64,000 nt of DNA, from the sequence record OL780484.1; one strand, 5' to 3'. Made by a program: the position numbers and the translations under genes. The notes beneath the pieces were generated by a model. The model did no database searches, had not been told where the DNA came from, and worked only from the letters and a program-made list of their open reading frames with translations. Below, piece by piece: positions 4,232-55,085 of this stretch. This DNA comes from Escherichia phage vB_EcoM-E33. Positions within the stretch are counted from its first letter, which is position 1; each line of letters starts with the position of its first letter.

Positions 4232-4332
4232 GCCTTGGAGTCGAGTTCTTGTTACTCTGTATCTTTGCTGTTATCCTAGGCCTGGCGACAGGCTTAGCTA
4301 TAGGTTTAATAGCAGCCCACTTTAAAAAGTAA
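4228..4332 (+). CDS. hydrophobic micro-protein, 34 aa, overlapping the gp52 stop (ATGA)
   Basis: translation MSLGVEFLLLCIFAVILGLATGLAIGLIAAHFKK; directly followed by a terminator. Confidence 0.3.
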   Translation: MSLGVEFLLLCIFAVILGLATGLAIGLIAAHFKK

Positions 4333-4356
4333 GGAACCTTCGGGTTCCTTTTTTGG
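4332..4356 (+). terminator. intrinsic terminator, stem aggaacc/ggttcct with UUCG loop and T-run
   Basis: hairpin plus TTTTTT read from sequence. Confidence 0.6.
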
Positions 4357-4373
4357 GTTTAGTGCAAAAAAGT

Positions 4374-4403
4374 GTTTACATCTGCTTTAAACATGATACT
4401 ATA
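4374..4403 (+). promoter_or_regulatory. T4-type early promoter upstream of motA
   Basis: GTTTACA, spacer, GATACTATAG. Confidence 0.55.
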
Positions 4404-4440
4404 GACCTATCAAATAAATGAACTGAAACGGAGATACAAA

Positions 4441-6522: not shown

Positions 6523-6611
6523 GCACGATTTCAATAAGGCTTCTGTCCATAAGGACAAGAAGAAAAATCTTAAAGAGTCTAAACGTAAACAGAAACATAA
6601 GGGTAAAGGCT

Positions 6612-6770
6612 ATGAGTCATAACTTAGAGAATACCGTAACAGGCATGCGTACGCGTGAGCAGGAGTGCTTTGAGGAATTCCTGGGAGCTGATTTTAAGTT
6701 CCAGGAACCAATAGAAGAGATGTATCAGGAATATGTTAAAAAGAACGAAGAACATGTTTACAATCCCTAA
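6612..6770 (+). CDS. small acidic protein, 52 aa
   Basis: ATG after AAGGCT; below the ORF-track cutoff. Confidence 0.3.
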   Translation: MSHNLENTVTGMRTREQECFEEFLGADFKFQEPIEEMYQEYVKKNEEHVYNP

Positions 6771-6784
6771 GGATATGTTAGTAT
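6756..6784 (+). promoter_or_regulatory. T4-type early promoter upstream of asiA
   Basis: GTTTACA, 16 nt spacer, TAGTAT. Confidence 0.45.
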
Positions 6785-34635: not shown

Positions 34636-34959
34636 ATGGAACTTCCTATTAAAGCGGTCGGAGAATATGTTATTCTCGTTTCCGAACCAAAACAAGCTGG
34701 TGATGAAGAAACTACTGCATCTGGTATCGTTATTGGCAAACTTCATCAAGGTGAAATCCCTGAACTTTGTGAAATTTATTCTGTAGGACCTGATGTCCCT
34801 GAAGATTTTTGTGAAGTAGGTGATTTGACTCCACTTCCTGTTGGTAAGATTGCTAACGTGCCTCATCCTTTGGTTGCATTGGGTATTAAACAACCTAAAG
34901 AAATTAAACAAAAATTCGTTACCTGTCACTATAAAGCTATTCCTTGCCTTTATAAGTGA
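34636..34959 (+). CDS. 31: gp31 co-chaperonin (GroES analogue for capsid protein folding)
   Basis: 107 aa; very high similarity to remembered T4 gp31 ([32 protein letters not shown]). Confidence 0.9.
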
Positions 34960-34967
34960 TATAAATA
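34960..34967 (+). promoter_or_regulatory. T4 late promoter TATAAATA immediately after the gene 31 stop; about 140 nt leader before rIII
   Basis: exact TATAAATA. Confidence 0.5.
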
Positions 34968-35105
34968 ATAATATGGATTGGCTGCCGGACTAGTTAGTTA
35001 ACCGGAGAATCCTAAGCGGTGGACTACAACTGAGAGACTTGCCGAAAGGAAGTGAAATTCAGAAGAACGTGTCCACCAATCTTTATCTCGAATTGAGAAA
35101 CTAAA

Positions 35106-35354
35106 ATGAACAAACAATTGAATCACGCTCTTGAACTGCAACGCAACGCTTGGAACAACGGTCACGAAAACTACGGCGCATCTATTGATGTTGAAGCCGA
35201 AGCACTGGAAATCCTGCGTTATTTCAAACATCTGAATCCTGCTCAGGCTACTCTGGCTGCTGAACTGGAAGCTAAAGATGAACTGAAATTTGCTAAGCCT
35301 TTGGCTTCAGCAGCTCGTAAAGCAGTACGTCATTTTATTATTACCCTGAAGTAA
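35106..35354 (+). CDS. rIII: rIII lysis inhibition accessory protein
   Basis: 82 aa; synteny 31-rIII-30.x; size identical to T4 rIII. Confidence 0.7.
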   Translation: MNKQLNHALELQRNAWNNGHENYGASIDVEAEALEILRYFKHLNPAQATLAAELEAKDELKFAKPLASAARKAVRHFIITLK

Positions 35355-35616
35355 GTTAAATCGAGGAGCCGTCGAACTGTTTGATTAATGATTTGCGAAT
35401 CATTATAGTTTTAAGACCCCAACAGTTTTACGGTGTACCTCTTGAATGTATTTTGTACTATCACGCGTCAGAAAAAGGTTATCTGTCTAAGTCGTGGTTG
35501 GTATGATGACGAGGTTTATGGTTATCCTGTCGTTAAATATCCGAAACCTATGTTCCCCTTGAGGGCTTGCGCAGGCAACGCCAATAAGTCCTGCATCCTA
35601 ATTTAAGAGATTTAAA

Positions 35617-35778
35617 ATGGCTAAGAAAGAAGTTAAAGTAGTTGACGGTACCTCTAAACGCGCTGGTTACAAGCGTGCGTCCAACAAGCGTATCAATCAG
35701 GTAGTTGATAAGCTTCAAGCTCGTGCTCGTGCAGTATTGCGTGCAGATGCTGCTTGCTTTGGTAAGCCTCAGGCATAA
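35617..35778 (+). CDS. small basic protein, 53 aa
   Basis: ATG with good context; codon usage like highly expressed genes; followed by a terminator; below the ORF-track cutoff. Confidence 0.4.
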   Translation: MAKKEVKVVDGTSKRAGYKRASNKRINQVVDKLQARARAVLRADAACFGKPQA

Positions 35779-35783
35779 GTTAT

Positions 35784-35808
35784 GGGACTCTTCGGAGTCC
35801 CATTTTTG
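35784..35808 (+). terminator. intrinsic terminator (gggactc-UUCG-gagtccc plus T-run)
   Basis: hairpin plus TTTTT. Confidence 0.65.
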
Positions 35809-35830
35809 TTTCTAAATCTTTAAAAAAAGG

Positions 35831-35860
35831 GTGTACATCTCCGGTAGGCATGATACTATA
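35831..35860 (+). promoter_or_regulatory. T4-type early promoter heading leader-repeat copy 1
   Basis: GTGTACA, spacer, GATACTATAG; ctccggt/accggag inverted repeat pairs the spacer with the downstream SD. Confidence 0.5.
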
Positions 35861-35900
35861 GACATGTACCAAATAATACTAAAACAAACCGGAGAATAAA

Positions 35901-36233
35901 ATGAAAACTGTAAATCTGAATGCATCTGTTAAAGCTAAATGTTTCAACGGTGAATATCAAGAAACCATGTGGGTCCTGACTGCAGTTGAAGGTGATATCA
36001 TCGAAGTTGAAACAACTGAAGGTATGGGTACTGATTTTACATTCACCATCGAGCTTCACAACTTCTTTACAGGTTGGATTTATGAACTGAAAACTGTAAT
36101 TACTGGTCGTATTGAAGAAAACAAAAATGGTGAATTCTATTATGTTAATGCCCGTACACGTGCTGAACGTCTGATTGCTCAGATGAAAAAAGTTGGTAAA
36201 CTTGATATGAAAAATTGGAATGTTGTGAAATAA
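35901..36233 (+). CDS. hypothetical protein, 110 aa
   Basis: ORF track; RBS GGAGAATAAA. Confidence 0.55.
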   Translation: MKTVNLNASVKAKCFNGEYQETMWVLTAVEGDIIEVETTEGMGTDFTFTIELHNFFTGWIYELKTVITGRIEENKNGEFYYVNARTRAERLIAQMKKVGKLDMKNWNVVK

Positions 36234-36235
36234 AT

Positions 36236-36265
36236 GTTTTACTTTGGTACAGGTTGTGTTATTAT
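36236..36265 (+). promoter_or_regulatory. T4-type early promoter heading leader-repeat copy 2
   Basis: GTTTTAC, spacer, TATTAT; ggtacagg/cctgtacc inverted repeat. Confidence 0.45.
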
Positions 36266-36306
36266 AGACCTGTACCAAATAATACGAAAACAAACTGGAG
36301 AATAAA

Positions 36307-54729: not shown

Positions 54730-54830
54730 GTTATCGTAAACCAGTCATCAATAAATGCCCTAAACCATCTAAAGAGCGGATGGACGAACTCCAAAAATTC
54801 ATTAATGCTGCTTTAGCAAGTAATAAATAG
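54726..54830 (+). CDS. small basic ORF, 34 aa (uvsY.-1 position)
   Basis: ATGA overlap with the uvsY stop. Confidence 0.25.
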   Translation: MSYRKPVINKCPKPSKERMDELQKFINAALASNK

Positions 54831-54858
54831 GTATGTAAGTTAAACTAAGGAGACAATC

Positions 54859-55026
54859 ATGTCAGATAAGATTTGCGTTGTCTGTAAAACTCCAATCGAT
54901 GCTGCATTGGTTGTTGAAACAGAAAAAGGTCCGGTTCATCCGGGCTCATGCTATAATTACGTTCAAAGCCTGCCTGTTACGGAAAACACTGAAGAACAGC
55001 TGAACGAAACCCAATTACTACTTTAG
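54859..55026 (+). CDS. small protein, 55 aa, with CxxC and GSC motifs (uvsY.-2 position)
   Basis: ATG after AAGGAGAC; followed by a terminator. Confidence 0.4.
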   Translation: MSDKICVVCKTPIDAALVVETEKGPVHPGSCYNYVQSLPVTENTEEQLNETQLLL

Positions 55027-55055
55027 TCTAGTGTGTATAGCCATTTATGGTTATT

Positions 55056-55084
55056 GGCCCTTCCGAAAGGTTGGGCCTTTTTTG
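55056..55084 (+). terminator. intrinsic terminator (ggccc ... gggcc stem plus TTTTTT)
   Basis: hairpin plus T-run. Confidence 0.55.
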
Positions 55085-55085
55085 T

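Follow-up and report, generated by a model that had tools for sequence, protein, structure and literature searches.

A conserved, modular RNA region with a pseudoknot between rIII and gene 30.9 of T4-type phages

The genes rIII and 30.9 of Escherichia phage vB_EcoM-E33 are separated by a gap of 262 nucleotides (nt), and we report here on what this spacer holds. The analysis was made on a stretch of 64,000 nt of record OL780484.1, hereafter called the window, which represents a JS98/Bp7-like T-even phage of the genus Dhakavirus and is 99-100% identical in this region to QL01, IME281, Bp7 and WG01. On the sense strand the spacer was found to contain a series of RNA modules in the order B, C, D, P and E, followed by a weak ribosome-binding site (RBS). 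Judged by comparison among relatives, base pairing of the sense-strand RNA is shown for B and D, where it is backed by covariation, and so is purifying selection that is stronger on the nucleotides of the spacer than on the neighbouring proteins. The signal in the gap is beyond chance on the same comparative grounds of conservation and covariation. As to function, we tentatively favour a role in cis, with the spacer serving as a structured leader on which the stability and translation of the 30.9 mRNA would depend.

We gathered 48 distinct rIII-30.9 spacers from GenBank phages and IMG/VR, covering about 13 genera (Tequatrovirus, with T4 and T2, Mosigvirus, Dhakavirus, Gelderlandvirus, Mosugukvirus, Karamvirus, Kanagawavirus, Kagamiyamavirus, Winklervirus, the Klebsiella Marfavirus-type and others); few additional spacers were gained from an exact-pattern scan of IMG/VR. 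The gap was kept in all 48, at lengths of 120 to 416 nt, and rIII and 30.9 never abut. Between the window and PhAPEC2, a Mosigvirus, nucleotide identity was 97.8% in B, 100% in C and 91.5% in D-E, against 90% in rIII, 79% in gp31 and 74.7% in 30.9. The corresponding values for T4 were 96.8% in B and 89.3% in D-E, against 84.5% in rIII and 72.3% in 30.9, and the same pattern of a spacer more conserved than its flanking genes was observed for T2. Used as a query, the 262 nt matched about 775 phage records, in the great majority of which the matching region is unannotated. The sole features annotated in the spacer are automated 'hypothetical protein' open reading frames (ORFs), with small ones in T2, CLB_P2 and Roth21. 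No lytic phages are better studied than T4 and its relatives, which are also the main coliphages in therapeutic use, and the spacer is nonetheless mostly unannotated.

No shared or intact conserved ORF was found among the 48 spacers. Close relatives differ by single-base insertions or deletions (GACGAGG versus GACGGG, CCTGTC versus CCTGGTC, and CCGAAACC versus CCAAAAACC), three such changes separate T4 from the window in D alone, and whole blocks are missing or exchanged between the spacers of relatives. Since these indels and module swaps break every frame, a conserved reading frame is excluded. An earlier note on this DNA, prepared from the letters of the window alone, had offered a structured leader, a small RNA or a decayed gene as explanations. 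The last of these is rejected, as no relative carries an intact conserved gene here, and the idea of structured RNA has gained support beyond the single hairpin then noticed, from the covarying modules B and D and the positionally conserved module E. The note had also called the gap free of ORFs. This holds for ATG starts, which give at most 19 codons; with TTG and GTG starts allowed, mechanical ORFs of 41 and 57 amino acids (aa) on the + strand and of 56 aa on the - strand cover the gap, which is therefore free of conserved ORFs and not free of ORFs.

Every one of the 48 spacers contains module D, which lies ahead of 30.9 throughout and is the sole universal module; over the roughly 13 genera it is conserved better than the neighbouring proteins. 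The covariation supports an H-type pseudoknot. In its first stem, S1, GAC(G)AGG pairs with CCUGUC (35508-10 and 35512-14 with 35526-31), leaving G35511 bulged. The second stem, S2, is formed by a stretch inside the S1 loop, GGUU at 35520-23, which pairs after the A-rich loop 3 with AACC at 35545-48. S2 has 7 base pairs (bp) in other genera and only the inner 4 (GGUU/AACC) in the T-even type, the window included, in which the outer three positions are U-U, A-A and U-U. Conserved loops are UU at 35515-16 and GUUAAAUAUCCGA at 35532-44. The alignment of 38 distinct versions of D was anchored on the invariant GUU, the CG and the end of the A-run, and not on the pairing. In this alignment 80.5% of the cells were paired, as against 31-54% when the partners were slid by 1-3 columns, and the covariation score was 0.352, as against at most 0.141 for the slid partners; 0 of 500 shuffles reached 0.352. 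Eight of the 13 pairs were changed on both sides, four in each helix. A covariance model of D (R1) found exactly one site in the window, at 59.6 bits. Apparent extra copies of modules elsewhere in the window, obtained by regular-expression searches with short motifs, were chance matches only. A likeness of the GACGAGG of D to the guanidine-III riboswitch was dismissed because this stem strand is unconserved in other genera.

Module B folds as an irregular hairpin with helices at 35363-66/35438-41, 35368-72/35430-34 and 35374-81/35421-28 and an apical stem of 8 bp at 35386-93/35398-405. This apical stem is the hairpin aatgatt-tgcg-aatcatt spotted in the earlier note, which was right about the structure and misplaced it, at 35391-35410 instead of 35387-35404. 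RNAalifold on 12 variants returned 25 pairs, of which five show compensatory changes, and three invariant G-U pairs, which would be A-C on the other strand, assign the fold to the + strand. B is 95-98% identical to its counterparts in T4, T2 and PhAPEC2. In the relative L056, one pair of the apical hairpin is changed from U-A to C-G and its neighbour to a U-G wobble, and the hairpin is kept. The folding-energy z-score against shuffles was -3.49 for B and -1.1 for the whole gap, and ranged from -0.06 to -0.6 for C, D and P-E, C being at -0.6. As C, D and P-E are unremarkable in energy, the evidence for them is comparative and not thermodynamic.

Module C is the weakest of our module calls. Its inner stem, CAGA/TCTG (35469-72/35482-85), encloses the loop AAAAGGUUA and is followed on the 3' side by the internal loop UCUAAGU. 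The compensatory changes, identified by eye in LF82-8, are CAGC/GCTG in the inner stem and CATG/CATG in place of CACG/CGTG. Module P occurs in most spacers, before or after D. In module E the stem GCAGG (35571-75)/CCUGC (35590-94) contains a mini-stem, GGC-AAC-GCC, and the loop motif AAUAAGUCC. A stable hairpin stands at the position of E in every spacer, always 19-33 nt before the start of 30.9 (that of the window ends 22 nt before it), and is built from at least 10 unrelated stem sequences, among them GGGAGC/GCTCCC, GAACTGG/CCAGTTC, GAGAGGT/ACCTCTC and GAAAGGT/ACCTTTC. The minimum-energy fold of the window (ViennaRNA) favours a competitor hairpin, GGCUUGC/GCAACGCC, over the E stem. In 35552-35594 of the T-even type, the E stem GCAGG/CCUGC and GGCUUGC-GCAG-GCAA(C)GCC are mutually exclusive; these competing folds may be an alternative-structure switch or an accident. 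In other genera a GGAAGA equivalent to the weak Shine-Dalgarno-like (SD-like) sequence of the window pairs with an upstream CUCC. Separately, we noticed that C, E (35469-35490 and 35576-35591) and the E-position hairpins of EcS1, Kc304 and L100 have in common the motif (U/A)(C/A)UAAG(U/A)C, which forms a 3'-side internal loop after a small inner hairpin. The UAAGU internal loop of C and E was considered as a K-turn, a reading that was set aside because by eye it does not agree with the consensus. The positions of all modules are listed in Table 1.

Table 1. Positions, in the numbering of the window, of the modules and flanking features of the rIII-30.9 region
Feature	Position	Strand	Basis or remark
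Late-promoter motif TATAAATA	34961-34968	+	sequence; abuts the stop codon of gene 31
rIII coding sequence, upstream cistron, 82 aa	35106-35354	+	ORF; phrog_1457, E 5.5e-43; annotation in 99.7% identical relatives
rIII-30.9 gap, 262 nt	35355-35616	+	
Module B, 88-nt irregular hairpin	35363-35441	+	RNAalifold, 12 variants
Module C, putative hairpin	35457-35502	+	double changes in LF82-8, by eye
Module D, H-type pseudoknot	35500-35555	+	covariation, 38-version alignment
Module P, mini-hairpin of 3-4 bp with conserved flanks, motif GUWCCCYUNGAGGRCUUG	35552-35569	+	regular expression; one copy in the window
Module E, RBS-proximal hairpin	35571-35594	+	positional conservation
Weak SD-like AAGAGA	35605-35610	+	sequence reading; 6 nt upstream of the 30.9 start codon
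Gene 30.9, downstream cistron, 53 aa, very basic	35617-35778	+	ORF; phrog_1427
Intrinsic terminator, 9-bp stem with UUCG loop (hairpin 35782-35803), then U-run	35782-35813	+	terminator scan; annotated terminator in PhAPEC2

The searches for known RNAs that the earlier note had recommended, by covariance models and for tRNAs, gave no known family and no tRNA. Rfam 15 returned nothing at the gathering threshold over the whole window, and ARAGORN found no tRNA or tmRNA in it. At E <= 10, the interval 34900-35950 gave one chance match to mcrA, of 11.7 bits against a cut-off of 57.6 bits. Scans of the loci of 15 relatives gave nothing at the spacer. A match to Atu_C8 in relatives was merely the terminator of 30.9.

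Module content and order differ between the phages. The window and PhAPEC2 have B-C-D-P-E, T4 has A-B-D-P-E, CE1 D-P-E, JS98 B-X-D-P-E, the Klebsiella phages F-D-A-X-P-G, Kc304 P-D-A-(E) and EcS1 P-X-D-(E). Where the window has C, JS98 and VR5 carry X, an element of 140 nt. X is an RNA domain of about 140 nt (JS98, L002:2063-2205; also in L007, L070-L073 and L076), which occurs once per record in 407 phage records, is almost always unannotated and is 100% identical across some members of Dhakavirus and Tequatrovirus. RNAalifold gives it 41 pairs, 18 with compensatory changes, arranged in a multi-helix junction with a GAAA-capped hairpin; a pseudoknot between a loop and downstream sequence was seen by eye, and X has no Rfam match.

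Module A was found in 25 of the 48 spacers, including those of T4 and T2, and is missing from the window, where its 32 nt are cleanly absent between GTT and AAATCG (between 35357 and 35358). It reads AGGUGAUUCGCUACCUUAAGUGCGGCUAGAAAAUCG in VR25-type Dhakaviruses and is more diverged in T4; examples lie at nt 5-40 of the spacer of L016 (VR25-type), L007:771-806 (VR5), L004:775-806 (T4) and L070:700-735 (Roth21). A is near-identical to plasmid units of 36/37 nt, 4-13 of which stand in tandem immediately before ToxN/AbiQ toxin genes, as in E. coli pU90-1 and Pectobacterium atrosepticum pPA21A (L118:1203-1346 and L117:1197-1672), and it matched 75 plasmid records in 216 places. This near-identity identifies A as a phage copy of ToxI, the antitoxin RNA of type III systems, present as one unit. 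We found no mention of A in the ToxIN/T4 papers searched (PMC9391042, PMC10853763, PMC5449768). As a side observation, the CUAAG of the motif common to C and E is complementary to a CUUAG in the loop of A. The 262 nt of the window gave one chance match and no ToxI array in 72,556 plasmids, and no match in 5,426 complete E. coli genomes; within these sets, the idea that the modules of the window are copies of plasmid or chromosomal RNAs gained no support. In the same type of search with a full Klebsiella-phage spacer, A alone matched. The D model returned nothing significant in 57 ToxN loci, a sample that is mostly from Firmicutes with thin enterobacterial coverage. TRF detected no tandem array in 34900-35900, only a 13-nt direct repeat of two copies.

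The + strand of the window carries, in order, cd, 31.2, 31.1, gene 31 (34636-34959), rIII, the gap, 30.9, the terminator and 30.8. The terminator scan found no terminator-like site between rIII and 30.9 and a strong one after 30.9, which closes the rIII-30.9 unit. At the other end lies TATAAATA, which we take to be a T4 late promoter. It makes up the first 8 nt of the gap between gene 31 and rIII in the window and in most of 37 distinct 31-rIII gaps, and in the remainder is missing or lies a few nt in; the copy at 34961 is likely to start the late transcript that includes rIII, the spacer and 30.9. The 31-rIII gap (34960-35105) is itself a structured leader. After TATAAATA it contains a CCGG hairpin at about 34985-35006, module G, a three-tier GAAA-capped hairpin at 35019-35078, and an SD-sequestering hairpin, UCUC-GAAUU-GAGA, at 35087-35099, the stem of which covaries, being CCUC/GAGG in other genera. 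In Klebsiella and Karamvirus phages, G is found again immediately before the 30.9 RBS, at the position of E.

The product of the downstream gene, gp30.9, is very basic and keeps 20 invariant columns across 12 homologues spanning genera. AlphaFold2 models it as a single long helix over residues 12-47 (pLDDT 77). It has no Pfam family, no relative in the PDB and no homology to known RNA-binding proteins, and no relationship was found to the ToxN inhibitor TifA (gp61.4), of which it had been considered a possible relative. The earlier note had credited 30.9 with a strong codon bias. All 6 Arg codons are CGY, all 3 Gly codons GGT and 9 of the 10 Ala codons GCT or GCA; since the background prefers the same codons and the gene has just 53 of them, the bias is suggestive only.

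Our reading of the spacer as a leader of 30.9 rests on the lack of a terminator before 30.9, the late-promoter motif, the conservation and the covariation of B and D. The persistence of the gap in every spacer, the hairpin at the E position, the similar design of the 31-rIII leader (two hairpins, then an SD-sequestering hairpin) and the conserved, basic and helical gp30.9 were also counted in its favour. We infer membership of the rIII-30.9 transcript, action in cis and any protein partner alike. According to this model rIII and 30.9 would be co-transcribed, and the spacer RNA would fold into B, C, D, P and E as independent modules. Hairpin E, together with a variable SD-proximal pairing, would set ribosome loading on 30.9 and, after endonucleolytic processing, E would shield the 30.9 message at its 5' end. 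D, whose single-stranded loops are invariant, would serve for specific recognition, most probably by a protein. The obvious candidate is gp30.9, which by analogy with T4 gene 32 might then act on an autoregulatory operator. B and C would be accessory hairpins for stabilisation or processing, which recombination adds and removes.

Several findings weigh against this reading. SD sequestration is weak in the window, C, D and P-E fold singly no better than shuffles, and A is in relatives a copy of an antitoxin RNA and no cis regulator. No conserved helix joins the rIII stop to the 30.9 start, as RNAduplex of the spacer ends against shuffles gave a mean z of about 0 over the 48 spacers. Further, an operator would call for conserved RNA structure in the 30.9 leader, which is found, and for D either to adjoin the RBS or to keep a fixed distance from it, so that binding would block initiation, which is not the case. 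From D to the 30.9 start codon there are about 65 nt in the window and about 290 nt, with modules intervening, in the Klebsiella phages, and this variable distance, together with the permuted module order, makes for a poor fit with a simple steric operator.

Module A lends itself to another explanation, the main rival of the leader reading, which we place on the unlikely side: that the spacer is a counter-defence RNA island of trans-acting decoys, expressed throughout infection from the rIII promoters. A would then be its sole member identified so far, and B, C and D would bind other host RNA-binding effectors, e.g. other type III toxins, possibly with gp30.9. Besides the ToxI identity of A and its presence in 25 of the 48 spacers, this is suggested by modules that are independent of order and RBS distance, patchy in close relatives and near-identical across genera, as in an arms race. 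It is also suggested by D, which, as a pseudoknot of some 50 nt flanked by single-stranded tails rich in A, has the general shape of a type III antitoxin (PMC5449768). A phage-encoded pseudo-ToxI is moreover a proven escape route, allowing PhiTE to evade ToxIN after expansion of its copy number (PMC3475682, PMC3594212). However, the window lacks A, its modules went unmatched in the plasmids and E. coli genomes, the D model was silent in the ToxN loci, and A is the only part of the Klebsiella-phage spacer that matches. D, being universal and single-copy, is core-like and not accessory. There are no tandem repeats, and a single pseudo-ToxI unit in PhiTE gave no protection (PMC3594212); wild-type T4, which bears A, is still restricted by toxIN (PMC9391042). 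A related proposal, of a recombining decoy array (A, X, D, B, C, F and G) that, perhaps with gp30.9, sequesters host RNA-guided or RNA-binding immune effectors, seems to us unlikely; if it were true, the modules of the window would mimic RNAs of unrecognised defence systems.

It is rather improbable that the modules are intercistronic processing or stability signals for RNase III, RNase E/G or RegB, with no specific regulator, that make rIII and 30.9 independent of each other in decay and translation, in the manner of the RNase III sites between T7 early genes. The long irregular hairpin B has the size of an RNase III substrate and contains GGAG, the RegB motif, at 35365-68; the hairpins directly 3' of rIII and 5' of the 30.9 RBS resemble a barrier to 3'-exonucleases and a 5' protective hairpin; and transcripts of the downstream 30.x genes of T4 are documented to be processed (Truncaite et al. 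2006, as cited in PMC9409239). Yet generic barriers need neither invariant loops nor a pseudoknot conserved over some 13 genera, B is missing in many relatives, and the GGAG is unconserved outside the T-even type. An element acting as DNA (a promoter, a protein-binding site or a recombination hotspot) is very unlikely. The very high nucleotide conservation, loops included, would suit it, as would the mosaic gain and loss of modules, which implies recombination, and a weak sigma-70-like site, TTGATT-17-TATAGT, which lies inside B at 35381-35409 (TATAGT at 35404-35409). Against this, the paired columns covary, and several of the pairs are G-U, for which the opposite strand or a DNA duplex would have A-C. 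The -35 sequence reads CTGATT in T4, B is often absent, and the 8 promoter-like matches in the region do not exceed the 5.6 +/- 2.1 expected from shuffles. When a promoter and a terminator bounding an independent small RNA were looked for, this same weak site, unconserved in T4, was seen, and no terminator-like site up to the end of 30.9. That a protein-coding gene has decayed or been frameshifted here has next to no probability; the mechanical ORFs of 41 and 57 aa and the small ORFs annotated in three relatives speak for it, but no frame is conserved, modules are swapped, and conservation peaks at paired and loop positions and not at codon positions.

The leader reading finds a parallel within the same phage group. 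In T4 gene 32 the pseudoknot operator, which gp32 binds, lies at the leader's 5' end, and an unstructured A/U-rich tract leads from it into the RBS. As with D, the pseudoknot is of the H-type and conserved among T-even relatives, and both stand in the leader of a gene whose small nucleic-acid-binding product could, in the case of gp30.9 by analogy, recognise the pseudoknot. Unlike in gene 32, structured modules part D from the RBS, by 65-290 nt, and the sequences are not known to be related. ToxI and pseudo-ToxI resemble the spacer in that relatives carry the 36-nt unit in the same place and in that D is a small pseudoknot with A-rich tails in a phage non-coding region; they differ in that ToxI-like sequence and tandem repeats are lacking in the window, no plasmid array matches it, and the D model misses the ToxN loci. 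D resembles the preQ1-I/II and SAM-II/V aptamers in several ways: it is about 50 nt long, its two stems are short, loop 1 is rich in U, and loop 3 is rich in A and has invariant nucleotides, which suggests a compact triplex-like core. Unlike riboswitches, it has no Rfam match at E <= 10, no adjacent expression platform and no downstream metabolic gene. The hairpins of T7 early mRNAs, which serve as RNase III sites or 5' stabilisers, are likewise irregular, intercistronic within a polycistronic mRNA and placed upstream of an RBS, but they are simple and lack conserved loops or pseudoknots. The PeSL cassettes of T4-type phages, which Arbiol and colleagues reportedly described in 2010, are said to combine an early promoter with a stem-loop and, as units of promoter plus terminator, to flank ORFs in hyperplastic regions. 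They too are short non-coding modules shuffled between T4-type genomes, whereas the spacer modules have no conserved promoter or terminator and do show covariation at the RNA level.

D and its companion modules are new as a family, while structured non-coding RNAs are a familiar kind of element in the leaders of phage mRNAs. We found the spacer undescribed in the searchable literature, a search that does not extend to Driukas and Nivinskas 2003 (Biologija; in vivo expression of rIII/30.9). If the modules regulate 30.9, they would provide an entry point to 30.9, which is conserved, has no known function and lies beside the lysis-inhibition gene rIII. If they are decoys, large lytic phages would carry RNA counter-defence islands comparable to the protein anti-toxin-antitoxin island around dmd-tifA, and the modules would point to host defence RNAs yet to be found.

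What the earlier note had said about the region was borne out in part. The gap of about 260 nt and the basic 53-aa ORF behind it correspond to the 262-nt spacer and gp30.9, and the terminator ascribed to that ORF was recovered as a hairpin and T-run. The stretch is indeed unusually long, since at a threshold of 60 aa 35355-35855 is the longest ORF-free stretch of the window. A GC content above that of the surroundings, also claimed there, was not observed: the gap has 0.401, against a window mean of 0.399, 0.434 in rIII and 0.469 in 30.9, and only 35552-35597 (P-E) is GC-rich, at 0.587. Other long stretches of the window with no ORF of at least 60 aa lie at 54730-55085, 6523-6777, 1105-1328 and 4232-4440, the last two of which have no ORF of at least 40 aa either in all six frames. 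Upstream of 30.8, at 35815-35880, an A-tract is followed by a T4-early-like promoter, GTGTACA-N16-TACTAT. A block similar to this one lies upstream of the next gene, at 36234-36300, and both have in common leaders of the type 'CAAATAATAC(T/G)AAAACAAACCGGAGAATAAAATG'.

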